The translations under genes and the position numbers were made by a program. From a virus (Duplodnaviria; Caudoviricetes): a stretch of DNA of 64,000 bases. The DNA is taken from IMG/VR virus record IMGVR_UViG_3300044846_003573. The stretch is one strand, 5' to 3'. A model generated the notes under the pieces. The model saw only the letters and a list, made by a program, of their open reading frames with translations. It ran no database searches and was not told the origin of the DNA. Within the stretch, counting starts at the first letter, position 1. Each line of letters begins with the position of its first letter. Below are positions 23,451-62,857 of this stretch, one piece after another.

Positions 23451-24401
23451 ATGAAAAGTAACGTTATATTAGAAATATTAAAAAAATTCAAAGAGTATAA
23501 CGAATATATTGTTGAATCTACTTCGACAGGTGATGCGGGTAGTTATAGAGCCCCATTAAGACCTGGATTAAAGTTGTGGGATAAGAATATTTTAGAGCCC
23601 TTTACTGAACAATTAAATGGTTATGATAATGCTGAAGTATATGTTGATTCACTTGATGGTAATATTGATACTAAGGGTATTAAAAGAAAAGAAGAAATGT
23701 CGGTCGCAATTTCAAAGTCAGACAAAAAACATCCTATTCAGAATGATGAAGATGGTAGTAATTTGAATGATAACCCTGTTAACACAAAACTACTTAAAAA
23801 AGTTTTTGATAATAAAAAAATAAAAGAGGGTACTAATAGTTCTGTAAGTGCTGGTGAGTATTCAGGTCCTATTGAAATAGGTTTAAAAAAATGGAGAAAA
23901 CAAGAATTAGGACCATTTACTGATGACAGTAACCATCAAACAACAAATAAAGCTAAGAAAAAAAATCTTAAAAATAATATTAAAAAAACTGTCGGTATTT
24001 GGGAAAAACATAAAGATAGTGGTTATGAGATTCCAACACACGATGTTCATACTATAAAAGAAGATTTAGGAGTTTGGTTTGGTACAAAGAAAAAACCAAA
24101 AGGTAGTAAACAACCTAAGGGGCCTTGGGTTAATATCTGTAGTAAAAAAGATGGAAAACATCCACCATGTGGTAGACCTGAGGGTGATACAAAGGGTTAT
24201 CCTAAATGTAGAGCGGTAGGAGTTGCTGCTAAAATGTCTGATTCACAAAAACAATCGGCTTGTCAACAAAAAAGAAAGGCTGAAAAAAAAGATACTCAAA
24301 CAGGTAAGGGTCAAAAACCTGTTATGACATCATACAAACCTAAAAAGAAAAAGACCAACGAATCGGTCTTAATATCTTTAATCAGGAAAGCTTTAGATTA
24401 A
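23451..24401 (+). CDS. basic modular putative internal head protein with Cys-containing C-terminal module
   Basis: Modules delimited by IVE/IKE/TNE; EDLGVWF...PWVNIC...PPCGR...YPKCRA...ACQQKR. Confidence 0.7.
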   Translation: MKSNVILEILKKFKEYNEYIVESTSTGDAGSYRAPLRPGLKLWDKNILEPFTEQLNGYDNAEVYVDSLDGNIDTKGIKRKEEMSVAISKSDKKHPIQNDEDGSNLNDNPVNTKLLKKVFDNKKIKEGTNSSVSAGEYSGPIEIGLKKWRKQELGPFTDDSNHQTTNKAKKKNLKNNIKKTVGIWEKHKDSGYEIPTHDVHTIKEDLGVWFGTKKKPKGSKQPKGPWVNICSKKDGKHPPCGRPEGDTKGYPKCRAVGVAAKMSDSQKQSACQQKRKAEKKDTQTGKGQKPVMTSYKPKKKKTNESVLISLIRKALD

Positions 24402-24643
24402 TAAATACTTTTGCTAACTCTAATACCTGGTTTAGGTGGCTCATAAGTTCTTTCAGGTCTTGAGTATTGTCCTGTATTATATTCAGAATTTAATTCTCTT
24501 AATGCATTTTTATATTCACCTGTTTCATCAGATAATATTCTATCAATAACATCTTGAACTAAACCTCTATCAAGTCTTCCGTATTCTGGTTCTTCTGACA
24601 TTTCTTTTAATACTTTTTTAATTTGGATATCTAACTTTGACAT
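24398..24643 (-). CDS. small protein with IKKVLKE leader
   Basis: MSKLDIQIKKVLKE; TATTTAT upstream at 24678-24672. Confidence 0.7.
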   Translation of the reverse strand: MSKLDIQIKKVLKEMSEEPEYGRLDRGLVQDVIDRILSDETGEYKNALRELNSEYNTGQYSRPERTYEPPKPGIRVSKSIY

Positions 24644-24653
24644 GATTCTAATA

Positions 24654-25058
24654 TTAACAATTTATTTTATTATAAATATTATCAAGTGAATGATTAATTT
24701 GACTTTCCAATTCTTTTTCAATCTCCATTGCTCTATATTCCATTTCTCTACGGAATGAGATAACCAATTTTTCCCATTGAATCTTACTTAATTTAATAAA
24801 ATAACTGTATGTATGATTGGTTATTGTAACTTGTCCACCATCCATTGTAACAAAAATACCTAATTTATCATTACGGATATATTTTTTATCGGATATTGGA
24901 GCGATTATAAGTTCAGAATCTTCCGAATGAATGAGTTTACGGCATATGGTGGAACATTTCCTCACGTTAGACATATAGATGTCAAATTCGGTATCCTTTC
25001 GGTCTAATTTACGTAAATACAGACGATACTTAATCCACAGTTTTTTTATTATAGTCAT
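24654..25058 (-). CDS. hypothetical protein (134 aa)
   Basis: Clean ORF with host-type promoter upstream. Confidence 0.7.
   Translation of the reverse strand: MTIIKKLWIKYRLYLRKLDRKDTEFDIYMSNVRKCSTICRKLIHSEDSELIIAPISDKKYIRNDKLGIFVTMDGGQVTITNHTYSYFIKLSKIQWEKLVISFRREMEYRAMEIEKELESQINHSLDNIYNKINC
24672..24678 (-). promoter_or_regulatory. putative late promoter motif TATTTAT
   Basis: 28 nt upstream of ATG 24643. Confidence 0.45.
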
Positions 25059-25077
25059 TTCATTTATGATTTGACTA

Positions 25078-25116: not shown

Positions 25117-25560
25117 TTAACAATACGCACCTGAACAATGTTTTTTTCCGTCAAGACCTTTGATTTTGCCCTTACATACTTGAACAGCATGGCCATTCGC
25201 ATAAGCACTTGGGTACACGTCATATTTTGATTTTGCAGACGCAACACCACGAGCACATAATTTAGTACCAGCTTTTTTACGACCTTCATACATTACATCA
25301 ACTGCGTCCTCACTACTAAAATCATCACCTTCAATTTCATTCATGATAAAATCAAATACTTGGTCCATATTATTTTTAGCTTCAGCGATATGGTCTTGAG
25401 CCCAATCGTGTCCATTATCTAAAATAGATTCAATCATTTGTTTATCTTTACCAAGTAGTATTTCACATTGGCGTTTCATTTGTTCTAAGTTAGAGAAAAA
25501 CATATATCTTTGATTTTCCTCTTTAAGAACTTTTTTAATTATGTTATTTAAATTTTTCAT
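25117..25560 (-). CDS. small protein with IIKKVLKE leader and basic Cys-containing C-terminal module (likely start ATG 25560)
   Basis: MKNLNNIIKKVLKEE...YMFFSNLEQM...HDWAQDHI...LCARGVASAKSKYDVYPSAYANGHAVQVCKG. Confidence 0.75.
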   Translation of the reverse strand: MKNLNNIIKKVLKEENQRYMFFSNLEQMKRQCEILLGKDKQMIESILDNGHDWAQDHIAEAKNNMDQVFDFIMNEIEGDDFSSEDAVDVMYEGRKKAGTKLCARGVASAKSKYDVYPSAYANGHAVQVCKGKIKGLDGKKHCSGAYC

Positions 25561-25561
25561 A

Positions 25562-26080
25562 TTACGCAATCATATCATCTTCTTTTAGGTCATTACAGAC
25601 TACATCTAAAAACACTTCAATATCGTGTTCTAAACCTTCATAATCTTCAAATACGTTAGTTCCTTCAGTTGTATTTTCAAACATACAAGTTTGAAAATTA
25701 CCCTCAGTATCACAATAAATTTCACCATAGTAATCACTATCATCAACTGTTAGATATCCTGTATGTATTTTTTCATCTTCAGTATCTTCAGTTGACTCAT
25801 ATCTAAATTTAAATGACGGCATACCTGGGAATTCAAAAGACCAAAAACCACCAGCTTTAGTCATAAAATCTTCTTTAGATGACGGTTCATCTTCTATTGA
25901 AATACCTTTAGTAAATTTTTCAAGAGTTTCTCTTTCTTCAGGTGTGATTGATTCCATTCCTGATTGACTAATTTTATCTAAAATCATGTCAATTTTATCT
26001 TCACCTGGTGACAAAGCTTCAGATAATACAAATTTTAATAATTTAATATATTCGTTTTCTTTTAATACTACTTTTTTCAT
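25562..26080 (-). CDS. acidic hypothetical protein with KKVVLKE...VLSE leader
   Basis: MKKVVLKENEYIKLLKFVLSEA; DMILDKISQSGMESITPEERETL. Confidence 0.7.
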   Translation of the reverse strand: MKKVVLKENEYIKLLKFVLSEALSPGEDKIDMILDKISQSGMESITPEERETLEKFTKGISIEDEPSSKEDFMTKAGGFWSFEFPGMPSFKFRYESTEDTEDEKIHTGYLTVDDSDYYGEIYCDTEGNFQTCMFENTTEGTNVFEDYEGLEHDIEVFLDVVCNDLKEDDMIA

Positions 26081-31663: not shown

Positions 31664-32401
31664 TTATTCAGGATTAACTTGAAGTAGAGCAGTATATATT
31701 TTTTTGAACTTTTTCATTGACGCTCTAATTTCTTTTGTTGACATATTTGTCATCTCTCTGAGCGATAATAAAATGATATTTTTGTTAAATTTATTGTTAT
31801 CAGTTGCTGGAAAAATAGTCTCATAATTTTCCATAATTTCAACTAATGAAATACCCAATTTCATTTCACTTTCATTTAAATCATCAATTTCAATAGTTTC
31901 TTTAATATAGTCAATTAGTATCGGGATTAAATTAACTTCTTCAAGTGGCTCAACATCTAAATAATAAACCATTTCAGGAGAATTTTCTAAATCACCTGAA
32001 ATATCTTCATAGGAAATTTTTCGGTTTTGTTCTTTTTGGTCTTTTAAAATTTGACCCATTAGATAATTTTTACAAATTGTGCCAAAATATGAATACGCCT
32101 TTTTTTCTTTAGAAGGACTAAACTTTTCTATTTTAGTCATTAAAAAAGAGTGAGTATCGGTATGGATTTCAATAAAATCCATATCTTTTCTGTATAATTT
32201 ATATCTACGAATAATTGAAGAAATCATTTTATCCAAAGGATGTCTCAAGTATTCATTATAAATCTTATTTTTTTCTTCAAAAGTAGAAGCGGTCAGAAAC
32301 ATTCTGACTGCGTTCTCTTCTCTTATATCAAAGTAATTTTCACCGCTAGACTTTTTTTTCGTCGTAACGTTAATTTCTATTGAGCTCGCGCTTAATATCA
32401 T
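31664..32401 (-). CDS. gp55: phage sigma factor, T4 gp55-like (late transcription)
   Basis: Sigma region-2-like KIEKFSPSKEKKAYSYFGTICKNYL; N-terminal YFDIREENAV. Confidence 0.7.
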   Translation of the reverse strand: MILSASSIEINVTTKKKSSGENYFDIREENAVRMFLTASTFEEKNKIYNEYLRHPLDKMISSIIRRYKLYRKDMDFIEIHTDTHSFLMTKIEKFSPSKEKKAYSYFGTICKNYLMGQILKDQKEQNRKISYEDISGDLENSPEMVYYLDVEPLEEVNLIPILIDYIKETIEIDDLNESEMKLGISLVEIMENYETIFPATDNNKFNKNIILLSLREMTNMSTKEIRASMKKFKKIYTALLQVNPE

Positions 32402-33207
32402 TAAACGTTTTCAGTAACAAATTTTATGTTTCTGTCTTCACTAAAAAAATATTCTTTTTTAGCTGAAGATACCCAAAACTTAACCTCATCCTCCTCAAGT
32501 TTGGTTTCACCATTTTTGTATTCCCAAAAAATAGAACCCTCTCTTAAATTAGTATGTTTGTAACCAATTTTAGGTATAGTCATAATTTTCGCTGAATTGT
32601 ACGTTAAACGAAGTAACAATTCATAAACAAATGTTAATTTGATGTTTGGTTTAAATCCACCAAAGTCCTCAATTAAAGATTTTTTAAATACCATTCCTGA
32701 CGTTTGAAAATTTTGATATTGTAATAAAGTTTCATTTGTTAGATATCCCATTTCTTGTGAGAAATTAGCCGCAAATGTTGCTTCGTTTGTAAAACCTTGA
32801 AAAGTTAATTTATTATCTACCTCAACTACGATAGGTAGGAATGCGTCAACATCAGAATATGAATCTAAATATTTTTTTACATTTTTAAACCAAATTTTTG
32901 AGTATTCGTCATCAACTTCTAAAATACTAACCCATTTAGTTTCAGCCTTTGTAATTCCAAAATTAACTTGGTTTGAAAAATTTGGTTCACCATCGAATTC
33001 AAAAGTCGTGACTGTAAGATTTTGAAAATCGTAATTTTCCAAATAATTTGATAAATTTTTATCTTTACCGTGAACTATAATTAAGTTTTTTGGTAAGAAA
33101 TCTTGAGATAGTACAGACTCGATTGATTTTTTAAAAAAGTCTTCAAAATCTCTCATTACCATATTCTTAATAGGTAATATAACACTTAAATCTAAAATAT
33201 TTTCCAT
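32401..33207 (-). CDS. glycosyltransferase family 2 (likely start ATG 33207)
   Basis: LSVILPI, NFGITKAETKWVSILEVDD (GT-A DxD-like). Confidence 0.8.
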   Translation of the reverse strand: MENILDLSVILPIKNMVMRDFEDFFKKSIESVLSQDFLPKNLIIVHGKDKNLSNYLENYDFQNLTVTTFEFDGEPNFSNQVNFGITKAETKWVSILEVDDEYSKIWFKNVKKYLDSYSDVDAFLPIVVEVDNKLTFQGFTNEATFAANFSQEMGYLTNETLLQYQNFQTSGMVFKKSLIEDFGGFKPNIKLTFVYELLLRLTYNSAKIMTIPKIGYKHTNLREGSIFWEYKNGETKLEEDEVKFWVSSAKKEYFFSEDRNIKFVTENV

Positions 33208-33211
33208 AATA

Positions 33212-34270
33212 TTAATTTTCAATTAATTGTAGTTTATTTAATTCAGTTTCAAAATTTTCTTTTATAACCTGAAGGTAACCTTCAAACGTTGATAAAATTG
33301 TCTTTTCAAATTTTTCTACGTCACTGTATTTTTCCGCAGTTTCAACACCATTTTTGTAAAGGTTTTCAGAAACATTATCCTCTAACCAATTTTGAACAAA
33401 ATCTGCAACATAGTCTACAAGTTTTATTTCATCTTGTATCCAAATTCCATTTTCTTCACTCAACCAACTTGGGACTAGTTTTGGAACTATACCCATAACC
33501 GCGACACCACTTTTCATAGATTCTAATGGGAAGGTACCAAAAGAACTAATTCTATCATTCCATACTGACAACATAGATTCTCTTAACGAACTTGCAAATT
33601 CTTCTTGGGATAGACCTCTTAAATCACGGAAAGTAATCCATCTAAACTGTGGATACTTTTGATAGAATGATTTAATAAAATTAATTGAATCTCTTTGTTC
33701 TCTAAACACAACCGAAATAATTGGTTTAACAGGTTTTTCAGAAACAACAAAATTCTCATCAATCACTGGCTCAATAACGTCAATAGCACTCATTCTCATT
33801 AATTTTGAGACATAATTTTTTTGTTCTTCTGAAGTTGTGATACACTTTGTAAAGTTAAATTGTTGCCAAGTTTGTCCAGGTTGGAGGGTCTCAAAAACAT
33901 AATCATACGACTGTGACAATACAATTTTAGTACAAGGTAAGTTTGTTAATTGACTCATAACATAACCAAAAATTTCAGGAATAATCATAAAATCTTCAGG
34001 AGCTATTTGTAAATTTTGTCCTTCTACTGATTGGTGAGGGATGGAATCGTATTTATTACCTAACCAACTTTGTACTCCAAAGTAATTAGGTTTTTCATGT
34101 AAAATAATAACATTATAATCGGCATTTTTAAGAGTTAATGCCATATCATAAATGTATTTGATTGACGCTTTAGCATTCCCTAAAGTATCTTGAGCGAAAA
34201 AATAAATTCTTGATTTTTTTTCACTTAAATTTTTAATTGAGTCCTCAATTTTTTTAATTGTTTCTTCCAT
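33212..34270 (-). CDS. GT-B (GT4-like) glycosyltransferase
   Basis: IYFFAQD...YDMALTL; SFGTFPLESMKSG nucleotide-binding motif. Confidence 0.65.
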   Translation of the reverse strand: MEETIKKIEDSIKNLSEKKSRIYFFAQDTLGNAKASIKYIYDMALTLKNADYNVIILHEKPNYFGVQSWLGNKYDSIPHQSVEGQNLQIAPEDFMIIPEIFGYVMSQLTNLPCTKIVLSQSYDYVFETLQPGQTWQQFNFTKCITTSEEQKNYVSKLMRMSAIDVIEPVIDENFVVSEKPVKPIISVVFREQRDSINFIKSFYQKYPQFRWITFRDLRGLSQEEFASSLRESMLSVWNDRISSFGTFPLESMKSGVAVMGIVPKLVPSWLSEENGIWIQDEIKLVDYVADFVQNWLEDNVSENLYKNGVETAEKYSDVEKFEKTILSTFEGYLQVIKENFETELNKLQLIEN

Positions 34271-34273
34271 AAT

Positions 34274-34537
34274 TTAGTATTTTTGAATTATTTTATTATT
34301 TAATAAGGTATTAAAGGCTAGTTTAAATGGTATTGATGCAGATGCTTTTTCACCTAAAGTTTCATCAACTTCTTCTGTCTCGCTTAAAATAACTTCTAAC
34401 ATCATTTTAATAATTTCATATTGAACTACCCCTATTTGTTGTTCTGTTGAACCAGATGAGTTTGGTGTGTCTATATTAATAATTGATTGGGCTGACTCTA
34501 AATCAATGTAATAATGTTCCCCCAGTATTTTTAACAT
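34274..34537 (-). CDS. hypothetical protein (87 aa)
   Basis: Clean ORF in operon. Confidence 0.65.
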   Translation of the reverse strand: MLKILGEHYYIDLESAQSIINIDTPNSSGSTEQQIGVVQYEIIKMMLEVILSETEEVDETLGEKASASIPFKLAFNTLLNNKIIQKY

Positions 34538-35129
34538 TCTTTAAATTTGTAATTATTTCGTCTAATTCTTTAATTTTTTCAATTGTTTTAGACGAGTTTA
34601 TTTTTTCGTTATAAAGGGTTTTATATTTTATAACTTTGTTATTGTAATTAATAAGAATATCAGGGTTAGAAGTAACTATTAAATCAAAATCATTCAGAAT
34701 TTGATTTTTTGTTATTTCATTATAGAAAATTATTCTTTCAAATTGACAACTAAACTTTGATAAAAAAAATAATGTAGCTGGTTTTGATTTTGAAATCTCA
34801 TCGGAAATAATTGTAAATTCAATATCATTTCTATGTTTAACATAAATTTCATTTAAATCCGCAAATGTCATCATTTCACTTGATGGTGAGTGTCCAAAAA
34901 TTTCCATAGGACAATCCTCAAACATAAAGGAAAACATTTCTTCTTTTGAAGGAAATAAAAAATGATTAAATAAATCTAAAGTATCGATTGGCTCAACTAT
35001 TGAATATTCAAATTTGTTTTCATCTTCTTCAATACCATCTGTTGATTGAATTAAGAATTTATCGTAAACACTTTTAAATTTACTTATGGTATCTCTTAAT
35101 ACACCATTAACCTCAATTCCTATCTTCAT
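34503..35129 (-). CDS. HAD-fold 5'(3')-nucleotidase-like protein with degenerate motif I
   Basis: MKIGIEVNGVLRD (canonical DxDGV replaced by ExNGV); KPATLFFLSK. Confidence 0.55.
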   Translation of the reverse strand: MKIGIEVNGVLRDTISKFKSVYDKFLIQSTDGIEEDENKFEYSIVEPIDTLDLFNHFLFPSKEEMFSFMFEDCPMEIFGHSPSSEMMTFADLNEIYVKHRNDIEFTIISDEISKSKPATLFFLSKFSCQFERIIFYNEITKNQILNDFDLIVTSNPDILINYNNKVIKYKTLYNEKINSSKTIEKIKELDEIITNLKNVKNTGGTLLH

Positions 35130-35853
35130 ATCTTTTTAATATTTCAGTAATCAATGGATTTCTAACAACATCTTCATCTCCAAACTCATGAACTCCAATC
35201 TCGGAAATATTTTTAAATTTTTCAATTGCATCCCACAAACCTGAATGTTTTTTATCTTTATATCTGTCAGTTTGTTCTAAATCACCTGAGATAAAAAATT
35301 TACTGTCAGTACCAATACGAGTTAATAATAATTTCATTTGTTTTGGAGTGGCATTTTGAGCTTCTTCAAATATTAAAATAGAGTTATCAATATTCATCCC
35401 TCTCATGTAGGCTAAAGCAAAAACTTCAATAACCTCCATTTGTTTTAATTTTTCTCTCGCTTCTTTACCTATAATTTTATTTAAAAGATAATATGATGGG
35501 AAAATATATGGGTCTAGTTTTTCTTCAACGTTACCAGGCAAAGAACCAAGTTTTTCTTCTGCTTCAACTGCGGGTCTAACTATGATAATCTTTTCGTAAG
35601 GTGAAGTATGGTCAGCAATTAAATCAACCGCCGCTTTCATTGCTATAAAACTTTTACCAACACCTGCAGGACCTGAACAAATTGTAATTTGATTTCTAAC
35701 TAATTTATCGTAATACTCTCGTTGACTTTGAGTTAAGAATTTATCCTTACTCTTTTTAATCATACCACTAATTTGGTCTTTCTTAGACATTTTTGGTTTA
35801 GAGTCAGTAGGAATATATTGACTGTCTTTACTAATTGTTTTTTTTCTTGTCAT
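35113..35853 (-). CDS. phoH: PhoH-like ATPase
   Basis: SGPAGVGKS, RPAVEAEEKLGSLPG, YMRGMN, EEAQN, GDLEQTD, VVRNPL. Confidence 0.95.
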   Translation of the reverse strand: MTRKKTISKDSQYIPTDSKPKMSKKDQISGMIKKSKDKFLTQSQREYYDKLVRNQITICSGPAGVGKSFIAMKAAVDLIADHTSPYEKIIIVRPAVEAEEKLGSLPGNVEEKLDPYIFPSYYLLNKIIGKEAREKLKQMEVIEVFALAYMRGMNIDNSILIFEEAQNATPKQMKLLLTRIGTDSKFFISGDLEQTDRYKDKKHSGLWDAIEKFKNISEIGVHEFGDEDVVRNPLITEILKRYEDRN

Positions 35854-35856
35854 TAT

Positions 35857-36681
35857 TTAATTTGTGTATAACTTTTTTGAGAATAATTGCATTTCACTTA
35901 TTTGAAATTCCAATTCAGGTATATCGTATTTTATATCAAAGATTGTTGATAACGTTCTATCAACAATAGATTCTGAATCAACTGGATTAATTTCAATATT
36001 TAAATTGTATGAATTTGATAACATTTTAACTAAATCATATTTTGACACTTGAGTTGGTGAAATAAAATGTTTAGTTCCTTTCCAAAAATCTTTGTTATCT
36101 ATAATTTTTTCTACTAATTTAGCCCATTCTAAACAAGTTATACCATTCCAAAAATGATTTAGAAACCCATTAACTTTATTATTTTTTTGACTTTTAACCC
36201 ACTCAACTAAAGACCTGTGTTGATTAACCTCTTCACCAATAATTGAAGTTCTTATTATTGTACAATTATTTGGTTCACCAATAGCTTTTGACATACCATA
36301 CACATCATCAACATCATATTTATCGTTTTCGTTATATCTACCTTTTTTACCTGAGTACACACAATCAGTTGTTGGGTGAATCATGTTCCATTCATTTTTT
36401 TCACAAATATTTGATAACATTCTTGGAAATACTGAATTAACTAAAATCGCATTTAAATCTCCTAATTGGTCAACTCTAGGTTTAATTGTACCAATACAAT
36501 TAATTATAACGTCACCTTTATTAACACCACTCTTTATCAATATATCTTCTATTGATTTTTCTGTTTGATGTGAAGCGTCAAGAATATCTCTATTAATTTC
36601 ACTAACATTAAATTTTTCAGATAAATAACTGTATACATATTTACCTAACATCCCTTTTGAACCTAAAATATAAATTTTCAT
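35857..36681 (-). CDS. rmlD: RmlD-like dTDP-4-dehydrorhamnose reductase
   Basis: ILGSKGMLG, INCIG, TTDCVYSG, YGMSK (YxxxK), IRTS. Confidence 0.8.
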   Translation of the reverse strand: MKIYILGSKGMLGKYVYSYLSEKFNVSEINRDILDASHQTEKSIEDILIKSGVNKGDVIINCIGTIKPRVDQLGDLNAILVNSVFPRMLSNICEKNEWNMIHPTTDCVYSGKKGRYNENDKYDVDDVYGMSKAIGEPNNCTIIRTSIIGEEVNQHRSLVEWVKSQKNNKVNGFLNHFWNGITCLEWAKLVEKIIDNKDFWKGTKHFISPTQVSKYDLVKMLSNSYNLNIEINPVDSESIVDRTLSTIFDIKYDIPELEFQISEMQLFSKKLYTN

Positions 36682-36705
36682 AATTTTTTTATTTTTTTTA
36701 TTTTT

Positions 36706-37125
36706 TTATCTAAAATCTTCTTCCCATATATTCCAATTATCATGTGGTAATCTTATATCGTCACCTAAACTTTCTTCTAATGATGTGGTAGAAAAGAAAA
36801 TAACTGAAGTATTATCTTCTAAATTTTTAAAACCATTATAGTGATTTGGTGGGATAAATAATACTTTTGGTTGTTTTGAACTTAAAATATATTTTGTAAC
36901 TTCTTCAGTTTCCATATTAACAATTCCAATAAGCGCAGTACCACTAGATACATAAACATATTTTCCTTCTTTTTTATGACCATGCCATGCTCTTATAAAT
37001 CCTTGTCTATGATTCTCAACTTGGTAAAATCTTTTTACATTTTCAAAATTGAAATCATTAACAAATCTAACCGAACCTCTATCATCAACAGAGATACCAC
37101 CATTCATTAATTTTTTTGTGTCCAT
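36706..37125 (-). CDS. RmlC-like cupin NDP-4-keto-6-deoxysugar epimerase/isomerase
   Basis: DDRGSV, IRAWHGHK, LFIPPNHYNGF. Confidence 0.8.
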   Translation of the reverse strand: MDTKKLMNGGISVDDRGSVRFVNDFNFENVKRFYQVENHRQGFIRAWHGHKKEGKYVYVSSGTALIGIVNMETEEVTKYILSSKQPKVLFIPPNHYNGFKNLEDNTSVIFFSTTSLEESLGDDIRLPHDNWNIWEEDFR

Positions 37126-38081
37126 AATAATTCTTTTTGATTTTTTTTATTTGTTAAAAACGCTCCATTGTGGTAAACTTTATCTTCAGGGTTCTCAATT
37201 CTATTTTCTTCAAATAAAGTTACCATTCTTAATACCTCATCCTCAACGGTTGTAATTGGTTTATATTTAAAAACTTTTAAAGATTTTGAATTATCAACAC
37301 GATAATTTCTAGCATCTTGAAAAGATATTTCAGTGTACGTTACTTTAGTATTAGGTACTATTTTAGCGACACGTTCACCTAGTTCTTTAATTATAACATT
37401 TTCTTTTGATAAAACAAAAATTCCTGGGTACTTTTCTTTACACGCCTCTGTAATATATCCTGCTATATCTTTAACGGCAATTATTGGTCTCCATTGTTCA
37501 CCACCATTAATAGTTATAGTACCTTCTTTTACCGCCTTCATAGTTAATACATTAACAACTAAATCCATTCTAATTCTAGAATATGTGTCACCAAGACCAA
37601 ATACAGTTCCTAATCTAAAAATTGTCCCATTTTTGTCTAAAATGTGTTTTTCGGCTTTAAGTTTTGTTGATGCATATGATGATAATGGATTTGTTTCACT
37701 TAATTCATCTAATATACCATCTTGAGCTCCGTAAACTGAACACGTAGACATAAAAATTAAATGTTTATCGGGTGAAACAATATCACAAAAATTTTTAATA
37801 GAATTATAATTAATTTCTTCAGTTAAAAATGGGTCAACACTACAAGCCGGGTCACCAACTAAAGCAGCCATTAAAACTATAATATCAAAATCTTTAGATA
37901 CTTCATAAAGTTTATCAGTATCTCTAATGTCTCCATAAATAAAAGAAACATCTTTTAAATACCTATTTTCATATAATAAATTATCGTAAATAGTTATATC
38001 AAACCCTTCTCTAATAAGATAATCTGATGTTAATCCTCCGATGTAACCGGCACCACCTACTAATAAAACTTTTTCTTTCAT
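37107..38081 (-). CDS. NAD-dependent sugar epimerase/dehydratase (extended SDR)
   Basis: VGGAGYIGG, MAALVGDPAC, STCSVYG, YASTK, FRLGTVFG. Confidence 0.9.
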   Translation of the reverse strand: MKEKVLLVGGAGYIGGLTSDYLIREGFDITIYDNLLYENRYLKDVSFIYGDIRDTDKLYEVSKDFDIIVLMAALVGDPACSVDPFLTEEINYNSIKNFCDIVSPDKHLIFMSTCSVYGAQDGILDELSETNPLSSYASTKLKAEKHILDKNGTIFRLGTVFGLGDTYSRIRMDLVVNVLTMKAVKEGTITINGGEQWRPIIAVKDIAGYITEACKEKYPGIFVLSKENVIIKELGERVAKIVPNTKVTYTEISFQDARNYRVDNSKSLKVFKYKPITTVEDEVLRMVTLFEENRIENPEDKVYHNGAFLTNKKNQKELLWTQKN

Positions 38082-38608
38082 TATTTTATAAATTTATTTA
38101 CTCTTCTTTCATTAGAGCGTCTAATTATTGTTAGCCCCGCTTCTGATACAGGTAATGTTAAAACATCCATATCAGGATAATTTTCTTTTAACCAGTCAAT
38201 CATTTTATATGAATCACCACAACGTAATTCGCTTAGATATTCTTCTGATATTGGGTCAGTATCGTGTAAAATTATCATACCAAATTCATTAAGTAATCTT
38301 AATGACAATTCAAAATCTTTTTTAACCGATTCAAAAGAATGGTCAGCGTCAATAAAAATAACATCGACCTTTTCATTAAAATTATTTAAAAATTCTTGAG
38401 TTGTTGATTGATGAAACTCACCAATATTTTTATGTATTCTGATATCTTTAATATCTACACCTATAACTCTAGGAACTATTTGGGCAACACTTGCCATAGT
38501 CATACCGTCGTAAATACCTAATTCTAAATAAGTCTGACAGTTAATTGATTTAACTAATTGAATGATTAAATCTGAATGATGGGATTTTCCATATGCGAAC
38601 ATAGACAT
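38081..38608 (-). CDS. class I SAM-dependent methyltransferase (Methyltransf_24-like)
   Basis: YLELGIYDG, VIGVDI, DVIFIDADHSFE, GMIILHDT. Confidence 0.85.
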   Translation of the reverse strand: MSMFAYGKSHHSDLIIQLVKSINCQTYLELGIYDGMTMASVAQIVPRVIGVDIKDIRIHKNIGEFHQSTTQEFLNNFNEKVDVIFIDADHSFESVKKDFELSLRLLNEFGMIILHDTDPISEEYLSELRCGDSYKMIDWLKENYPDMDVLTLPVSEAGLTIIRRSNERRVNKFIK

Positions 38609-38653
38609 ACTTTTTGTTTTAATTTATTATTGTTTATTTATATTTTTTTATGT

Positions 38654-39478
38654 TTAAAAAACAGGTATTGTTTCGGCTTTACATCCACCAAACCACCAAA
38701 TACATTCTGAAAATGTACTAAGACGATTACACACCAACATATCACATTTTGAAGCTATTAACATACTTGCGGCAGAATATTGCATCTGTGTAATGTTATC
38801 TGGTTTAGTATAAGTTATTACATTATAATCTTTTAAGTATTCCAAATACTCAGGTAAAACACTATCATTATCTGAAGTGAGAAAAATTGTTTTTACTTTT
38901 GGTAAGAATTTATCAATTGCGTTTTTATATGTTTCAAAATTATAATCTCGAATAACTCCATCACGAATACTTGTACAGTATGGTGGGTCAAATTTATGTG
39001 TCCACGTTCTTATTTGAATTGTTAGTAACGGATATTCAAAATTTTGCGAAATTCTATCAACCTCAGACAAAACTTCATTTTTCCATTTAATTTTACTAAT
39101 TCCATTTTGTATCCTGTCATACACTGTATCAGATATAAGTTTTCTATCAAAAAACCAATCAATTGAGTGTGTTGAAAACAAATAAGAAAGTTTTTTATTT
39201 GCAATATTTGGGTGGTCACCTAATGATTTTGCGTCATTAATTAAATCTGGTTGTTCACTTTCCTCTGATTTTAAAATAAGGAATCTTGCTGAAACAAATG
39301 ACTCCCCAAATTCATGTGTACCATGACAAATTAAACTATCATCTAAAATTTCATAATAATTAGCGTCAAAGTGAGCATCAAATCTTGGTAAGATATTAGT
39401 TTCCGCAATACTTAAAGCCGTGACAAAAGATTTAATAACATTACATAAACCTGATTTTATTTCTACTGTGAATTTCAT
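38654..39478 (-). CDS. fucosyltransferase-like GT-B protein (NodZ/GT23/O-FucT-like; likely start ATG 39478)
   Basis: SGLCN N-terminus, TIQIRTW, IFLTSDN, STFS motifs. Confidence 0.6.
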   Translation of the reverse strand: MKFTVEIKSGLCNVIKSFVTALSIAETNILPRFDAHFDANYYEILDDSLICHGTHEFGESFVSARFLILKSEESEQPDLINDAKSLGDHPNIANKKLSYLFSTHSIDWFFDRKLISDTVYDRIQNGISKIKWKNEVLSEVDRISQNFEYPLLTIQIRTWTHKFDPPYCTSIRDGVIRDYNFETYKNAIDKFLPKVKTIFLTSDNDSVLPEYLEYLKDYNVITYTKPDNITQMQYSAASMLIASKCDMLVCNRLSTFSECIWWFGGCKAETIPVF

Positions 39479-39485
39479 ATTTATT

Positions 39486-40409: not shown

Positions 40410-40417
40410 AATTTATT

Positions 40418-41389: not shown

Positions 41390-41398
41390 ATTTTATTT

Positions 41399-42007: not shown

Positions 42008-42011
42008 AAGA

Positions 42012-44576: not shown

Positions 44577-44580
44577 ATGT

Positions 44581-45369: not shown

Positions 45370-46165
45370 TATTTATCGAGTATTTATTTTCAAGTTTAGT
45401 CACATAATTGAATAAGTAATTATTTTTATTCCACATTTCCCAAAATTTATTATCCATGTTTACTCTATTTGTTACTGTTGCATTTTTATCATTTCCGTAA
45501 TGCCATAAATGAAGAGCAACAAAATCATCAATAAACCTGACATTTAATTTAAGACGAATTCTATGTATAAATTCATCATCATCAAACGCTACTCCAGTTG
45601 CGAATCTTTCGTCAAATCCTCCTAATTCTTTTAAATCTTTTTTAGTTATTGCGGTACAAAAATGATAAGATTTTGGTCGATATAATGAATGATTATACCA
45701 TCCTTCATCACCATCATTAACTACTGATATTTTTTTATATGTTGAGGGGTTAATAAATGATTTAAAATCATTAAGTTGTAACACTGCCGATGTTTGAATT
45801 TCACTTAAAGAATAACAAGCAAATGATAAATAATCATTATCAATTAAATTTTCGTTTACAAAATTTAAAATATCATCTGAATGTAAACATTCAGGATTTT
45901 GTATAATAATTTTATCACCTGATACATGGTTAAATCCAACGTTAAAAGGAACACATGGATTTACATACCATTTATCTTTTTTTTCTAATCTAACAATTTT
46001 TAAAAAAGGAAATTTGTCTACCAAATCTTCTAATCTCTCATCTTCGTGACTACAGTCATCGACAGCGATAACTTCAAAATCAGTAAAACTACTTTTTTTA
46101 AAACTTTCTAATGTTTTAATAAATATTTTTTTTCGATTGTGATATGCGGTAACAATAGAAATCAT
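45362..46165 (-). CDS. GT2 glycosyltransferase
   Basis: ISIVTAYHNR, IAVDDCS, FNVGF, GGFDERF...FDDDEF, HLWH. Confidence 0.85.
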   Translation of the reverse strand: MISIVTAYHNRKKIFIKTLESFKKSSFTDFEVIAVDDCSHEDERLEDLVDKFPFLKIVRLEKKDKWYVNPCVPFNVGFNHVSGDKIIIQNPECLHSDDILNFVNENLIDNDYLSFACYSLSEIQTSAVLQLNDFKSFINPSTYKKISVVNDGDEGWYNHSLYRPKSYHFCTAITKKDLKELGGFDERFATGVAFDDDEFIHRIRLKLNVRFIDDFVALHLWHYGNDKNATVTNRVNMDNKFWEMWNKNNYLFNYVTKLENKYSINNG

Positions 46166-47220
46166 AATTTTTCTTTTAATATTTCAATAATTTTGTCTGA
46201 TGTTTTACCATCTCCTAACCAATCTGTGTTTGAGTTATAATTTGACAGATAATTAAATGACTCAATCCACGAAACATCTAATTCATTTACATTAATCATA
46301 TATGAACATCCGGATTCAACCGATTCAGGTCTTTCAGTGAAATCTCTTGGGACAATAACTGGAGTATTAAATAAACAAGGTTCTTCTTGAGCTGTACCTG
46401 AATCTGAAATTATAAACTTAGAATGGTACATTTCATTTATATAATTTTTAAAAGATAATAAATCAATTACTTTAATATTTTCTAAATCTAAATTAAATTC
46501 GGATATTTTATCAATAGTTCTTTTAAATGATAACATTTCAACAGGTATCCCAAATCTTTGGGAACAAATATTAGCATAGTTTAATATGTTTTTTAAACGT
46601 TCCTTACTATTAAAATTTTCAGGTCTATGAATATCTAAAATTATTTTATTATTTTTTTTAGATTTATTTAATTCTATTTTATTTGCAACCTCTTTAATTG
46701 TATTTCCTACAACATAAATTGATTTTGGATTAATTGATTCTCTAATCAATTTTTCTTTGTAATTATCATGATAAACAAACAAAAGGTCGCTACAATGGTC
46801 ACAAACAATTCTATTAATTTCTTCAAGCATTCTTTTATCACCAGACCTCATACCTGCCTCAATGTGGGCGATTTTATACCCCTCTTTTTTAAGAGGTACC
46901 GATGCTAAAGCCGAATTTGAATCACCTAAAAAAATTATTAAATCAGGATTTATATTTTCATTACGAATTAAGTCAATAATTTTAACAGATAAATCAGCTT
47001 GTTGATGAAAATGTTCTTTTCCTTTTGAGCCGATTTCTAAATTAAAATCAGGTTTACGTATTGATAACTCATCAAAAAATACATCGGATAACATTTTATC
47101 ATAATGTTGTCCTGTATGTATTAATATATGATTAAAATTGTTATCTAATTTTTTAAAAATTTCAGACATTCTTATAAAATCGGGTCTAATACCGGTGATA
47201 GTTATAATTGTTTTTTTCAT
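46162..47220 (-). CDS. wecB: UDP-N-acetylglucosamine 2-epimerase (non-hydrolysing)
   Basis: GIRPDFIRM, HTGQHYD, LGDSNS, HIEAGMRS, EEINR, HRPEN, SDSGTAQEE, ERPE. Confidence 0.93.
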   Translation of the reverse strand: MKKTIITITGIRPDFIRMSEIFKKLDNNFNHILIHTGQHYDKMLSDVFFDELSIRKPDFNLEIGSKGKEHFHQQADLSVKIIDLIRNENINPDLIIFLGDSNSALASVPLKKEGYKIAHIEAGMRSGDKRMLEEINRIVCDHCSDLLFVYHDNYKEKLIRESINPKSIYVVGNTIKEVANKIELNKSKKNNKIILDIHRPENFNSKERLKNILNYANICSQRFGIPVEMLSFKRTIDKISEFNLDLENIKVIDLLSFKNYINEMYHSKFIISDSGTAQEEPCLFNTPVIVPRDFTERPESVESGCSYMINVNELDVSWIESFNYLSNYNSNTDWLGDGKTSDKIIEILKEKL

Positions 47221-48854
47221 TTGTTTAATAATTCTATATATTTCTTTTTAATAAATTTTGAAACTTCAGAAGATTTAAATTTTTCTAAATCATCGGGTAC
47301 ATTATATAATTTTTTATTAATAATATTACCATAATTGTCTACATTATAAATCCAACCTGATTTACCACACATCCAACCTTCAATGGTAGTTCTACCTAAT
47401 AAAATACCTGCAGTTTCTGTACATTTGTGAATATATTTATCAACTTCTAACGTTGGTGGGAAATGTTTAACATGTGAATTTTTTAATAAATTGGTTAAAT
47501 ATGTGTCTTTATTTTCACCGACTAACCAAAGTTCTTTATTTTCTTCTTTTGATAACGTTACTAAATCATATATTGTATTTTTCCTCAGGTAATCGATAGA
47601 ACCAACAAACAAAATATAATTTTCAGACTTTAAATTTTTATTATAAAATTTAGTTTCATCAATTGGATTGTAAGTTATGTCTACAATATCTTCCGAAATA
47701 TTAAAATTAGTAATAATATGTTTTTTAATTTCAGGACGTATTGCAATGTATTTTTTAATACTATTGTGAATTACAGGATTTTCAAGTTCAATTACTTCAG
47801 AATGAATTGTACAAATTTTATCAATCGTTGGATATAACATATTCATAATATCAACAATTGGTTTATGTTGACAATGAATGATATCAAAATGAGGGGTATC
47901 TACTTGATAAAATTTGTTTGGAACTGAAGGTTCAGGGCCTCTTTCAGTCATTGTTACCCATTTACCATCTCCCATTTTAAAACCTGGTGTATCTTTAATG
48001 TTTTTAACTTTAATACCTAATTTAGTTGCCATTAAAACCAAAGGCCCATTTGTTTCAGACGCAACCACAGTCACATCACAATTCTGTTTTACTAAATTTT
48101 TTGCCAATTCAAAAACATACATTTCAGAACCTGTAAATTTTTGGAAAAACAAACAACTAATTAAAACTTTTAATTTATTATTTTCGGTAAATTTTATTTT
48201 TTTAGGTAAGTATTCTGAGTATTTTTCAACAAAAAGTTTTCTATTATCTTCCCATTTTTGATTGGTCATACCTATTGATTTGTGAGTAATACGAATATTA
48301 GTTAACACACCAATTTTTACCCCTTCAATATTGTTTTTAAAACAAAAATTCACATCATACATGTGAAAACCATCAACGGTTTCATCAAACTTAGATTTAA
48401 TTTTTTGTTTATTTAATGCTATAAAAACACCATCAACAACCACAACTTCTCTTATATCATTACCTAATGAATCAGAATATTTTGATTCCCATTTTTTACC
48501 TTCAGATTCATGATTGACTATCCCAAACATTTTTGTACGGTCTTCCCACCACATTCCACTTTTAGGCATTTCAGTTGTGCCTGCCATACCTAAAATTCCA
48601 AAATCATCATTTCTTTCAAATTGTTTAACTAATTTTGAAGCCCAATTTGACGTGTCAAAATAAATATCGTCATGACATAATACAACAATATCAAAAATTG
48701 ATTCTGAAATTATTTCATTATAAACTTCTGAAAGATTTTTTTCACCGTTATTAACTTTCTCAATAATTTGTACCTTTGGATGACCTGAAGATTTTTTTAG
48801 ATACTCTTGAAATTGAGGATTAGAATTTCTTGTACTATATCCAATTGTTATCAT
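47217..48854 (-). CDS. two-domain glycosyltransferase (GT2-like N-terminal + GT4-like C-terminal)
   Basis: YNEII...VLCHDDIYF...FHMYDVNFC; then TGSEMYVFELAK...GRTTIEGWMCG. Confidence 0.75.
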   Translation of the reverse strand: MITIGYSTRNSNPQFQEYLKKSSGHPKVQIIEKVNNGEKNLSEVYNEIISESIFDIVVLCHDDIYFDTSNWASKLVKQFERNDDFGILGMAGTTEMPKSGMWWEDRTKMFGIVNHESEGKKWESKYSDSLGNDIREVVVVDGVFIALNKQKIKSKFDETVDGFHMYDVNFCFKNNIEGVKIGVLTNIRITHKSIGMTNQKWEDNRKLFVEKYSEYLPKKIKFTENNKLKVLISCLFFQKFTGSEMYVFELAKNLVKQNCDVTVVASETNGPLVLMATKLGIKVKNIKDTPGFKMGDGKWVTMTERGPEPSVPNKFYQVDTPHFDIIHCQHKPIVDIMNMLYPTIDKICTIHSEVIELENPVIHNSIKKYIAIRPEIKKHIITNFNISEDIVDITYNPIDETKFYNKNLKSENYILFVGSIDYLRKNTIYDLVTLSKEENKELWLVGENKDTYLTNLLKNSHVKHFPPTLEVDKYIHKCTETAGILLGRTTIEGWMCGKSGWIYNVDNYGNIINKKLYNVPDDLEKFKSSEVSKFIKKKYIELLNK

Positions 48855-60193: not shown

Positions 60194-60197
60194 AAAA

Positions 60198-61328
60198 TTA
60201 TATTACATACAGATTTCTTGGGAACGCTCTAAACTTCATTTGTTTGTTTAGATTTTCAGCAATTAACGCTTCTCTCTCCATTATTTTTTCAGGACGTAAT
60301 CTTGTCAATCTTCCGTCTGCTCCGATTAATTCTTCAATTAATTTTAATTTTTCATCTTTACCCTCAGTTGCTAAAGTAGCATAATCCATAGTTAATTCTG
60401 AGTCAGGTGTTTTTAAATTACCTGAATACTTTCCTCTTACTTTTGATAATGTTTCTTTACATCCCGCAACAAAATATCTTCTAACCCATTGTTGAGCCGG
60501 TTCGTTTAAATCTGCCCATGAAATTGAGTTGAAAGGAACATCTGAGGGAAGTTTAATAATATCAGGGTTAGCAGCTAAACAAGCATCTCTATCCTCAGGG
60601 CCAACATCGTAATACCAATACCAAACTTGGTGATTTCTTAATGATGAATTACCAAAATCAAATTTACCACCAGGTGTTTGCATTAAATGAATTGCTTTTT
60701 TACCATTAGGTAATCCTGTAATTCTATAAGTTAAATCACCACCAATAATTCTTCTCTGAATATTAATTTCTTGCATTCTTAATAACATATCAAATGCTGG
60801 CATCATAAAATAACTTCCTGACATATAACCCATCTGAGCAAAACCAGTTCCACCACCAAGTCCTCCCCCCAAACCACCAAAACTGAATGGGTCAAATAAA
60901 ATATTATTTAGAGTTGCTGGTGTAAACCATAATAGTTCATTAATTTCACGACCTGCGGGTATTTCATAAATCTGTTGATTGGGTACTAATGTGATATAAT
61001 CTTTTTTAAGTTCCCAATCACCAAGTGGGTTAGATTGTAATCCCACTATTTTAGAGTATGCTTGAGCGTATCTATTTTCGTAATCTAAACTTTTTGTAAC
61101 AAATGCCCTTGATAAAGATTGAGTATCTAAATTTAAATTGTATAATGAAGTCCATTGTGATTCAATTAACCAATCTTGTACATATTGGGAATAATCCCCA
61201 ATTGCAAATTCTAAGATTGAGTCCATTTGTTCATCTTCTAATTCAATTGAACGAATTGGGGCTCCTAATACGTGTCTAACTTTTGTATATAGTTGACTTC
61301 TGTAAGGTTCTGCGATTATTGTATTCAT
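60198..61328 (-). CDS. gp13: neck/head-completion protein (T4 gp13-like)
   Basis: VRHVLGAPIRSIELEDEQMD...AIGDY; WVRRY...KETLSKVRGKYSG...L. Confidence 0.8.
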   Translation of the reverse strand: MNTIIAEPYRSQLYTKVRHVLGAPIRSIELEDEQMDSILEFAIGDYSQYVQDWLIESQWTSLYNLNLDTQSLSRAFVTKSLDYENRYAQAYSKIVGLQSNPLGDWELKKDYITLVPNQQIYEIPAGREINELLWFTPATLNNILFDPFSFGGLGGGLGGGTGFAQMGYMSGSYFMMPAFDMLLRMQEINIQRRIIGGDLTYRITGLPNGKKAIHLMQTPGGKFDFGNSSLRNHQVWYWYYDVGPEDRDACLAANPDIIKLPSDVPFNSISWADLNEPAQQWVRRYFVAGCKETLSKVRGKYSGNLKTPDSELTMDYATLATEGKDEKLKLIEELIGADGRLTRLRPEKIMEREALIAENLNKQMKFRAFPRNLYVI

Positions 61329-61344
61329 GAAGTGATATTTTTAT

Positions 61345-61351
61345 ATAAATA
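61345..61351 (-). promoter_or_regulatory. putative late promoter motif TATTTAT
   Basis: 16 nt upstream of ATG 61328. Confidence 0.55.
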
Positions 61352-62857
61352 TCAATTCAGAGTATAAATTAAATCTTGTGCCGGAATTTTAAACATGCTT
61401 GAACTAAAAGCTACCGTTTTGTTTTTAAAAATATAAACTTCTTTGTTAATATTTGAAAAAATTAATAAGTCGGTATTAAATTTTTTAACAAACCCTCTGA
61501 TTTTAATATGATAGAAACCCTCAATTACTTCCATACTTAAAATTGGTTTTACTTGAGCATTTTGTATTTTGTTATCAAAATTCACTGTTAAATCAGTACC
61601 CGCAAAATCTTCTTTTGAGCCAAGACTACCTACTACAATAGCAGTTCCTTCACCAAATTCTTGATTGATTTTTTTTGCAACATACTCCTCAAGTTGACCA
61701 CCTTTGTCATGTGTTCTATTTAAAAGTTTCATAATCTTATCAAGAGTTTTAGACCCTTTAAAAATTCTTTCACCAAAAAACTCCAAATAAGAACAAAATT
61801 TATTTATTTCTTCTACTTGTTGTGAAGGTGTTACCCCAATAAAATTTAATGTGGGTTTATTTAGTTTTGTAAGTACTGCGTTTAAATCATCAACTAAAAT
61901 TTTAAACCCAATATAATTTGTGTTTAATTTATTAATTACTGAACGACCTGGTTGTTCCAAGTCGTAGATACCTGAAGATGAACCTTCAGAGTATTGATTG
62001 TTTTCACTCCATTTATCAGATAAAACTCTTTTCAACGTATTGTCAATACATCTTCTATAAGTCCAAAGAACATTTTTGTTGTTACTAAAAATATCTGAAT
62101 AATCAGATACGTTTTCGTATAAAAGTTTTTTTTGTGAAGTTGACTCGTTCAATTTCTTTTCAGTTTTTGATTTGTATAACTCGTTAACAAATTCCCAATT
62201 AATTGCGTCCCAAAAATTTTCAATATATTCGTCTCTTTTGTTTTGGTATTTTAAATAATAAGCGTGTTCCCATAAATCTAAACCTAACAACGGAAAACCA
62301 CCCTTGTTTATTATATTCATAAGTGGATTATCCTGATTTGAAGTAGACATTACTTTTAATCTACCTGTATCGGTTAACACTAACCAACACCACCCCGAAC
62401 CAAATCTTTTTCTTGAAATTTCTTCAAATTTAGTTTTGAAGTTGCGATATGTTCCAAATTGTTTAACAATCTTTTCAAATACCTCACCACTTGGTTTTTG
62501 TGGTGTGGGTGATAACATCTTCCAAAATAATGCGTGGTTAAATGCTCCACCTGCATTATTTCTTATTGTTGTATTATACTTTGAAATTTGTTTAACAATA
62601 TTCTCCAATTCAACATCACCATAATCTTTTTTACGAAGAGCGGAATTTAATTTTTTAACATACCCTTTGTAATGTTTCTGATAATGAAACTTCATTGTTT
62701 CAGGGTCAATAAATCTTCTTAATGATGCGTAACCATATGGTAATTTATCAATACCTATGGTTTTCATTTCGTTAATAAAAAATTTGGTTTCAGGTTGAGT
62801 TTCTTCACCTAATATACGACTAACTAATGACTCTGATACTAAATTTAACGATTTCAT
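61352..62857 (-). CDS. sod: Fe/Mn superoxide dismutase fused to a C-terminal PD-(D/E)xK-like domain
   Basis: LPYGYASL, KHYKGYV, GGAFNHALFW, FGSGW, DLWEHAYY (four ligands); C-terminal G-x-x-x-E...GTD...QVK. Confidence 0.85.
   Translation of the reverse strand: MKSLNLVSESLVSRILGEETQPETKFFINEMKTIGIDKLPYGYASLRRFIDPETMKFHYQKHYKGYVKKLNSALRKKDYGDVELENIVKQISKYNTTIRNNAGGAFNHALFWKMLSPTPQKPSGEVFEKIVKQFGTYRNFKTKFEEISRKRFGSGWCWLVLTDTGRLKVMSTSNQDNPLMNIINKGGFPLLGLDLWEHAYYLKYQNKRDEYIENFWDAINWEFVNELYKSKTEKKLNESTSQKKLLYENVSDYSDIFSNNKNVLWTYRRCIDNTLKRVLSDKWSENNQYSEGSSSGIYDLEQPGRSVINKLNTNYIGFKILVDDLNAVLTKLNKPTLNFIGVTPSQQVEEINKFCSYLEFFGERIFKGSKTLDKIMKLLNRTHDKGGQLEEYVAKKINQEFGEGTAIVVGSLGSKEDFAGTDLTVNFDNKIQNAQVKPILSMEVIEGFYHIKIRGFVKKFNTDLLIFSNINKEVYIFKNKTVAFSSSMFKIPAQDLIYTLN

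Follow-up and report, generated by a model that had tools for sequence, protein, structure and literature searches.

Several otherwise unrelated proteins encoded in a 64,000-nucleotide stretch of viral DNA (IMG/VR record IMGVR_UViG_3300044846_003573; Duplodnaviria; Caudoviricetes), hereafter the window, begin with short, basic, amphipathic leaders that end in a hydrophobic residue, any residue and glutamate. These leaders raise the question of whether they address proteins to the capsid, as the capsid-targeting sequence (CTS) of phage T4 does. A first-pass annotation had proposed that they do so for enzyme cargo, and all seven N-termini that it quoted are present, at 23451 (+), 24643 (-), 25560 (-), 26080 (-), 52393 (-, WYL-like), 62857 (-, superoxide dismutase, SOD) and 12134 (+) (Table 1). 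The window is part of a virus record of 155,988 bases with a GC content of ~30%. Its source is an uncultured T4-like lake jumbo phage, and the record is a fragment of a jumbo-phage genome, since complete relatives measure 257–321 kilobases (kb). From homology, motif identity, conservation patterns and co-occurrence, we favor, with somewhat better than even confidence, the reading that the leaders form an enlarged T4-style capsid-targeting and processing system. By analogy with T4 internal proteins, the leader-bearing proteins would probably be loaded into the capsid and trimmed there; delivery at infection would be a step beyond targeting and processing.

The full form of the leader, which we call the core tag, lies just outside the window. 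Eight genes (window coordinates -30473 to -12406) start with a 22-residue peptide of consensus M-K-K-v-v-R-L-T-E-S-D-L-x-x-I-V-K-R-V-I-x-E, and a ninth (-16410) starts with a weaker form; the tag genes outside the window score 33–56 bits against a small seed model, with Met always at position 1. Across 22 tag sequences, M1, K3, E9 and E22 are invariant. A scan of the record with a leader model, a check that the first-pass annotation had recommended, was made with the second half of the tag and returned 12 matches of at least 4 bits, all 12 within the first 30 residues of a protein, with none at that threshold among the remaining ~50,000 residues; window genes 25117 (10 bits) and 24398 (4.2 bits) are among the 12. 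The proteins that share the tag are otherwise unrelated, as had been proposed: BLAST finds no match at E 1e-3 between any of the bodies that follow tags in this genome, and the 43 N-terminal tags counted across 2.06 Mb of related DNA are spread over 18 unrelated body clusters.

The tag is also widespread in public data. A profile built from the 22 tags, searched against 1.84 billion cluster representatives, matched 8,584 proteins at E≤1e-3 and 115 at E≤1e-10, and 148 of the best 150 matches have a tag copy beginning at residue 13 or earlier. Glu occupies tag positions 9 and 22 in every one of 149 N-terminal and 62 internal aligned public copies and is never replaced by Asp, a count that carries some selection bias, being drawn from the top profile matches. 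In T4, Asp at the cut position stops processing and leaves targeting intact (PMC9026906). Complete relatives (257–321 kb) carry 11–18 tags each, mostly on open frames of 85–250 residues and often in tandem arrays, and all five complete genomes found through the tag's DNA pattern alone encode the prohead protease (73–78% identity). A homologue search with residues 1-40 of one tagged protein returned orthologs only (the word index needs more shared words), and a full-text search for the core letters of the tag found no paper within the library covered.

A peptide repeated at so many gene starts could reflect chance, plain paralogy or a conserved 5' DNA or mRNA cassette, consisting of promoter and start region, that spreads by recombination. 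The bare motif is indeed common, the genes at -28384 and -27745 have near-identical leader codons, and the tag often lies 11–14 nucleotides (nt) from the promoter-like motif TATTTAT. Against this, same-residue codon pairs in the eight tags are 64% identical, compared to 54% predicted by codon usage alone; synonymous codons are therefore near random, which indicates that selection acts on the peptide and not on DNA or mRNA, and a DNA cassette was rejected on this ground as the explanation for the whole family. The neighboring pair at -28384 and -27745 is the only recent DNA duplicate. Since the bodies are also unrelated, further copies stand within proteins or at their ends, remote from any promoter, and the N-terminal match recurs across the public clusters given above, we regard this explanation as very improbable.

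Having compared ortholog leaders across 80 related loci fetched via the capsid protein, we found that the IKKVLKE-type leaders of the window belong to the core tag. The 27 distinct orthologs of 25117 share the body R-Y-M-F-F-S-N-L-E-Q, headed either by the short leader or by the full 22-residue LTESDL..IVKRVL.E (for example M-K-K-V-V-K-L-T-E-S-D-L-S-R-I-V-K-R-V-L-N-E) with a linker of 2–8 residues, and orthologs of 25562 carry the same body behind M-K-K-I-x-L-T-E-S-Q-L..V-N-E. Because these bodies bear short or full tags across relatives, the IKKVLKE-type leaders of the window are shortened members of the core-tag family. In the 24398 family, four of four distinct orthologs end in V/I/L-x-E. 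More generally, the leader on a given body may be long, short or of another kind depending on the phage, and its end is V/I/L-x-E in every case. The earlier description of an IKKVLKE-like shared leader thus stands for 24398, 25117 and 25562 as forms of the core tag; what it described was the tail alone, missing LTESDL..IVKRVI.E and the internal and C-terminal copies. The product of 25562-26080 (-) also has a Pfam DUF6576 match (residues 29-58, E 2e-8) directly after the leader, a domain found at the C-terminal end of Bacteroidota rhomboid-type proteins.

The WYL-like, SOD, 23451 and 12134 proteins carry family-specific leaders in place of the core tag. In all four families, essentially every distinct ortholog N-terminus retains hydrophobic-x-Glu, while the rest of the leader varies in sequence and length. 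For the WYL-like protein, all 26 distinct ortholog N-termini consist of M-K/R-L, ~7–9 residues and [ILV]-x-E, followed by the domain. For 12134, all 21 complete distinct ortholog N-termini end in R/Q-[ILV]-N/Y-E, followed by A-P-I/V, with leaders of 10–22 residues of which the shortest is M-K-T-Y-K-K-R-I-N-E. The 42 distinct ortholog N-termini of 23451 vary in length and sequence, and nearly all of those beginning with the first module end in [ILV]-x-E, followed by A/G/S-T and a Gly/Ser-rich stretch. In the SOD fusion, E30 of F-I-N-E is invariant in 46 orthologs (49–96% identity), whose first 20 residues are the least conserved part of the protein; the helix at residues 2-15 has low confidence in the structure model. 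The SOD protein does have a leader, as the first-pass annotation held, with F-I-N-E at residue 30 being a better conserved site than the I-L-G-E at residue 18 that it had marked. Together, the half-tag model, the full tags of orthologs and the conserved hydrophobic-x-Glu of the family-specific leaders bear out its claim that a shared leader system exists.

Further candidates lie upstream of the terminase gene. In the gene starting at 9580, I-N-E followed by T-S-S or N-T-K occurs in 13 of 13 full-length N-termini (14 listed; 22 distinct orthologs), and gene 11239-12132 (+) has a conserved L-Y/H-E followed by S-M-V-N near the N-terminus of its product. From these patterns, the products of 9580-10857 and 11239-12132 may be further processed core proteins. 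A neck-type protein at 60198, which begins M-N-T-I-I-A-E-P, was rejected as a leader protein: the motif is not kept in orthologs, and it is followed by Pro.

The reading of these peptides as capsid-targeting signals depends on the head that the phage builds. The gene order terminase-portal-protease-scaffold-capsid matches T4 genes 20-67-68-21-22-23 (order read from the T4 record), with two small genes of no assigned role between the portal and protease genes. The protease is 33% identical to T4 gp21 (E 2.5e-22), and its N-terminal G-I-L-I-E, kept in 46 relatives, parallels LIE-9 of T4 gp21 (PMC9026906). In one complete relative there is a second, diverged prohead protease copy (G003:C1:31369-31788; 47% identity over residues 54-204), reminiscent of the protease paralog reported in SPN3US. 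The product of 19874-21226 had no family match in Pfam and PHROG scans and is a probable scaffold by position and composition; with it, a gp23-like shell, gp20-like portal, gp21-like protease and scaffolding core, the components of a T4-type prohead, are all represented. The nearest cultured relatives by capsid protein are Flavobacterium phage immuto and Microcystis phage Mel-JY01, at 42–43% identity, and IMG/VR holds hundreds of uncultured relatives with 74–84% capsid identity.

Alignment of the capsid protein with T4 gp23 places the T4 cut F-L-T-E/A-E-I-G (L-T-E-65) opposite F-L-I-N-E/A-A-S-T of the window protein. Residues 1-60 including L-I-N-E are near invariant in 47 distinct relatives, while the next residues are hypervariable and small (A/S/T/G). 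A conserved propeptide followed by hypervariable residues is the pattern expected of a maturation site, and the tag, with its invariant E22, ends in the same protease motif, I/L-x-E, as this predicted site.

In T4, internal proteins (IPI, IPII, IPIII) and Alt carry propeptides of 10–19 residues that target the scaffolding core, and gp21 removes these CTSs and the propeptides of Alt and gp24 (Mullaney and Black 1996; PMC9026906, PMC3012670). The T4 internal proteins and gp22 purify together, foreign proteins are packaged when given the CTS alone, and the internal proteins found among T-even phages are diverse, having only the CTS in common (PMC9026906, PMC3012670). The system described here is like that of T4 in having a short N-terminal amphipathic peptide on unrelated proteins that ends in I/L-x-E, protease, portal and capsid genes that are homologous and identically ordered, and high turnover of bodies between related phages. 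It differs in that the core tag has 22 residues rather than 10 and two invariant Glu, occupies 11–18 genes per genome in addition to the family-specific leaders, compared to 3–4 in T4, is widespread in metagenomes, and also occurs internally and C-terminally in apparent polyproteins. Between the core tag and the T4 CTS MKTYQEFIAE there is no detectable sequence similarity; the WYL-like leader MKLYNVIKQLIFE and the 12134 ortholog leader MKTYKKRINE resemble the T4 CTS by eye only.

On the T4 model, the amphipathic, net basic N-terminal helix would anchor a late gene product, freshly synthesized, to the scaffolding core as the prohead assembles. Once the shell closes, the gp21-like protease would cut after the Glu of the terminal I/L/V-x-E, with a possible additional cut within the tag, behind the invariant Glu of its L-T-E, and these cuts would free the mature protein inside the head. 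Multi-module proteins, including the 23451 family, the SOD-nuclease fusion and the public two- and three-tag proteins, would be cut into modules at the same motif. We infer that tags bind the core and are cleaved, that their genes are expressed late and that the host receives the ejected cargo. A complex prediction for the scaffold (450 residues) and the tag scored 0.00; the run had no controls and carries no weight either way.

Tag copies are not confined to gene starts. Among the best 150 public proteins, 57 have two or three tags, ~100–130 residues apart, and some internal copies retain their Met. Of 61 internal copies, 38 have a further [LIVMF]-x-E within the 12 preceding residues, compared to a 24% background (p 2e-10). 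The contigs encoding two multi-tag proteins are 2–3 kb long and gave no useful gene context. In the window, the 23451 protein has further sites after E126, E204 and E304 and a leader-like C-terminal helix, and its relatives have a full tag at the C-terminus or between modules. One of its modules, G-x-Y..P-L-x-P-G, has a second copy after another [I]-x-E in the window and in some relatives; another, the Cys-rich D-L-x-V-W-F-G-T-K-K-K-P-K-G, always has [IL]-x-E directly before it and, where it forms a separate gene, has its own leader of a few residues ending in [IL]-x-E. This basic modular protein (23451-24401, +), with relatives in L015, L042, L043, L072 and L073, adjoins the capsid gene; its Cys-rich module has the letters W-V-N-I-C..P-P-C-G-R..Y-P-K-C-R, and in some relatives the modules are separate genes. 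In the SOD fusion, E238 and E248 are conserved in at least 90% of orthologs, and AlphaFold confidence (predicted local distance difference test, pLDDT) falls below 50 only at residues 234-249 and in N-terminal parts; from sequence and model, the linker may be cut there. Because tag copies recur inside and at the ends of proteins, the tag helix appears to be the functional unit, rather than N-terminal position as such.

A number of observations weigh against capsid targeting. First, bare [LIVF]xE endings occur within residues 8-30 in 79 of 154 proteins (51%), compared to 40% of internal 25-residue stretches; the count was dropped as evidence because the difference is not significant, and the motif rule by which the first-pass annotation had recognized leaders is weak as a sufficient signal. 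Second, the tag is longer, at 22 residues, and far more conserved than the tolerant 10-residue CTS of T4, and so may have some specific partner or an additional role. Third, the occurrence of the tag helix at C-termini and internally means that it is not strictly an N-terminal signal. Fourth, the residue after the final Glu is mostly Q/N/S/D/G, compared to A/S at the capsid site. Fifth, ~ten paralogs at window coordinates -37279 to -9234 (~105–205 residues, most ~110), which start M-K-Y-[LIV]-I-T-E-S-Q-L, resemble the tag in its first half, have no Glu at the final position and seemingly continue into a folded domain. Sixth, the co-occurrence of tag and protease may reflect one phage clade alone, and a tblastn search of 50,697 deposited phage genomes with the tag returned a single chance match, in an Enterococcus phage, and no cultured relative that bears the tag. 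Lastly, late timing is something we infer from TATTTAT, a putative late promoter common to head and tag genes.

The second, third and fourth of these points would fit a tag whose helix docks or oligomerizes at a different structure of phage or host (a membrane, for instance, or a factory for replication or assembly), with Glu needed for binding instead of cleavage: conservation exceeds what a cleavage-plus-helix signal needs, copies stand internally and C-terminally, and the residues behind the final Glu are unlike those of the capsid site. We consider such a role quite unlikely, as it leaves unexplained why unrelated family-specific leaders all keep hydrophobic-x-Glu directly before a folded domain, why extra motifs flank the internal copies and why the motif is that of the capsid maturation site.

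If the leaders do target the capsid, the bodies behind them are the candidate cargo. The clearest is the SOD fusion, in which the SOD domain matches PDB 6gsc (E 1.7e-59, residues 38-229), contains D-L-W-E-H-A-Y-Y and, by comparison with solved Mn/Fe SODs, starts its fold at ~residue 36, and in which H58, H108, D194 and H198, at metal-ligand positions, are invariant among orthologs. By fold and metal-site motifs, the N-terminal domain of 61352-62857 is a real Mn/Fe superoxide dismutase. For the C-terminal domain, the best Foldseek matches are all PD-(D/E)XK nucleases, namely I-Ssp6803I (E 2.3e-3, prob 1.0), a SPARDA filament structure, Hjc and NhoI; D422, Q435 and K437 are invariant, and the ESM Atlas lead is PDDEXK_5. 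The models thus give weak to moderate support for a nuclease-like fold, and the earlier label SOD/nuclease was a reasonable one. The fusion, joined by a disordered, motif-bearing linker, is kept in >500 IMG/VR stretches. We know of no phage example of a SOD joined to a nuclease-like domain.

The other bodies are less telling. The WYL match of the 52001-52393 product spans residues 17-93 at E 3.9e-4, and its 20.8 bits fall below the Pfam cut-off of 21.8, so the WYL domain of the first-pass annotation is WYL-like only. No hydrolase, which it had also listed as cargo, was found among the leader proteins of the window. None of nine tagged proteins of this genome and 7 of 98 tag-bearing public proteins had any match in Pfam scans, leader-bearing bodies gave hardly any matches to Pfam or PHROG, and most tagged bodies are small (85–250 residues) and without a known domain. 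Enzyme cargo therefore fits a minority of bodies, the SOD fusion being the sole clear enzyme among the leader proteins of the window; the proposal of a larger T4-like cargo system gains from the T4-order head module and the shared motif and was overstated in its emphasis on enzymes.

These small bodies would also be expected if the tag targets and is cut while most of the cargo is expendable core or scaffold filler, or DNA-condensing internal protein, rather than delivered effectors. The 23451 family is basic and predicted to be cut into small modules, like T4 core proteins, and the 12134 product, highly acidic and ending in a poly-Asp tail, recalls T4 gp67. A SOD with an intact metal-site motif and a nuclease-like domain, however, makes little sense as filler, a nearby PPK2-lysozyme protein is also an enzyme, though without a clear tag, and the high turnover of bodies between close phages recalls the arms-race pattern shown by T4 internal proteins (PMC3012670). 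We hold filler to be an unlikely description of most of the cargo, if a serious one. The fuller form of the capsid-targeting reading is that, in a clade of freshwater jumbo phages, one portable 22-residue tag (thousands of protein clusters, 11–18 genes per genome) and family-specific tags direct into the capsid, for injection with the DNA, dozens of rapidly changing proteins and of polyproteins that cut themselves, the SOD-nuclease-like fusion among them. This we offer tentatively, as a possibility that falls short of an even chance.

Outside the T4 group, the T4-related prohead protease of phiKZ-like giant phages (SPN3US, phiKZ, 201phi2-1) processes many head-internal proteins after x-x-E (PMC5694885, PMC7411985, PMC10052503). 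The likeness extends to propeptides with several sites and to the paralogs gp53 and gp54, which have an identical 15-residue N-terminus; in contrast to the tag, phiKZ-like propeptides are mostly >100 residues long and their motif is A/S/G-x-E, not I/L/V-x-E (PMC5694885). Also unlike the system described here, phiKZ-like phages have no single short tag on dozens of unrelated proteins and no known gp22-like scaffold. In encapsulins, a short terminal peptide addresses diverse enzyme cargo into an HK97-fold shell; unlike the tag, encapsulin peptides are usually C-terminal, bind the shell and are not removed, and there is no protease, scaffold or DNA.

Should injection of the cargo prove true, a plain rule on sequence would pick out the set of proteins injected by a large group of uncultured lake phages, with hundreds of candidate host-takeover or counter-defence proteins among present hypothetical proteins. 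T4 capsid targeting would then be a general, expandable system that includes polyprotein cargo, effector delivery would be far larger than the three internal proteins of T4, and the tag could be reused for packaging. Virion SODs have been reported in some giant viruses of eukaryotes; to our knowledge, a virion-packaged SOD would be new for phages.

Table 1. Head genes, leaders and processing-site features of the window (window coordinates)
Feature	Position	Strand	Basis or remark
Possible further propeptide, residues 1-37, ends S-I-N-E then T-S-S	9580-9690	+	gene 9580-10857
12134 leader, residues 1-16, ends R-I-N-E	12134-12181	+	acidic 437-residue protein 12134-13447, directly upstream of terminase
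Large terminase	13513-15258	+	PHROG 2, E 1e-39; TATTTAT precedes gene
Portal, gp20-like	15495-17342	+	PHROG 213, E 1e-62; TATTTAT precedes gene
gp21-like prohead protease	18816-19535	+	PHROG 207 head maturation protease, E 1.7e-43
Probable gp22-like scaffold	19874-21226	+	acidic, helical, between protease and capsid genes as in T4
gp23-like major capsid protein	21258-23108	+	Pfam Gp23, E 5.8e-73
Predicted capsid propeptide, residues 1-60, ends L-I-N-E	21258-21437	+	alignment with T4 gp23 propeptide
23451 leader, residues 1-22, ends Y-I-V-E	23451-23516	+	basic modular protein, gene 23451-24401
Leader, residues 1-14, ends V-L-K-E	24602-24643	-	81-residue protein 24398-24643; half-tag model 4.2 bits
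Short leader, residues 1-14, IIKKVLKE	25519-25560	-	gene 25117-25560; half-tag model 10 bits
Full-length diverged tag, residues 1-21, ends V-L-S-E	26018-26080	-	gene 25562-26080
WYL-like leader, residues 1-13, MKLYNVIKQLIFE	52355-52393	-	gene 52001-52393
SOD fusion protein	61352-62857	-	Pfam Sod_Fe_N and Sod_Fe_C
PD-(D/E)XK nuclease-like C-terminal domain, residues 250-501	61355-62110	-	model pLDDT 89
SOD fusion disordered linker, residues 234-249	62111-62158	-	two [LIM]-x-E motifs (E238, E248) between SOD and C-terminal domain
SOD fusion N-terminal extension, residues 1-30	62768-62857	-	amphipathic helix, then F-I-N-E directly before SOD fold

The promoter-like motif TATTTAT lies 11–14 or 21–26 nt before the start codon of 54 of the 168 genes of the record, among them terminase, portal, protease, scaffold and the neck-type gene 60198. 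It is found within 50 nt upstream of 9 of the 12 tag genes in the record, and also ahead of 23451, 24398 (35 nt upstream) and the SOD gene (12 nt before the ATG); genes 25117, 12134 and WYL lie inside same-strand gene runs. A few other genes have the Bacteroidota host-type TAnnTTTG. The short spacing of TATTTAT implies very short or absent mRNA leaders, and no Shine-Dalgarno-like sequence is present. An internal contrast is provided by the sugar-nucleotide and glycosyltransferase genes at 32.4–48.9 kb, which have ordinary enzyme N-termini without leaders and mostly lack TATTTAT.

That 17-kb run (32401-48854, -) encodes a GDP-mannose 4,6-dehydratase, an RmlD-like reductase, an NAD-dependent epimerase/dehydratase-family protein, a UDP-GlcNAc 2-epimerase, a DegT-type aminotransferase, a methyltransferase and GT2-, GT4- and GT17-like transferases, and could modify the host surface or the virion. 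Several genes in the region -37279 to -9234 have a second kind of leader (for example ..E-I-N-R-F-R-E-I-S-G-L and ..K-I-K-N-N-M-G-L-T-E). At 6176-8239 (-), the window also encodes a ClpB/ClpA-type double AAA+ chaperone of 687 residues (AAA_2, E 2.5e-68, with a ClpB D2-small domain).

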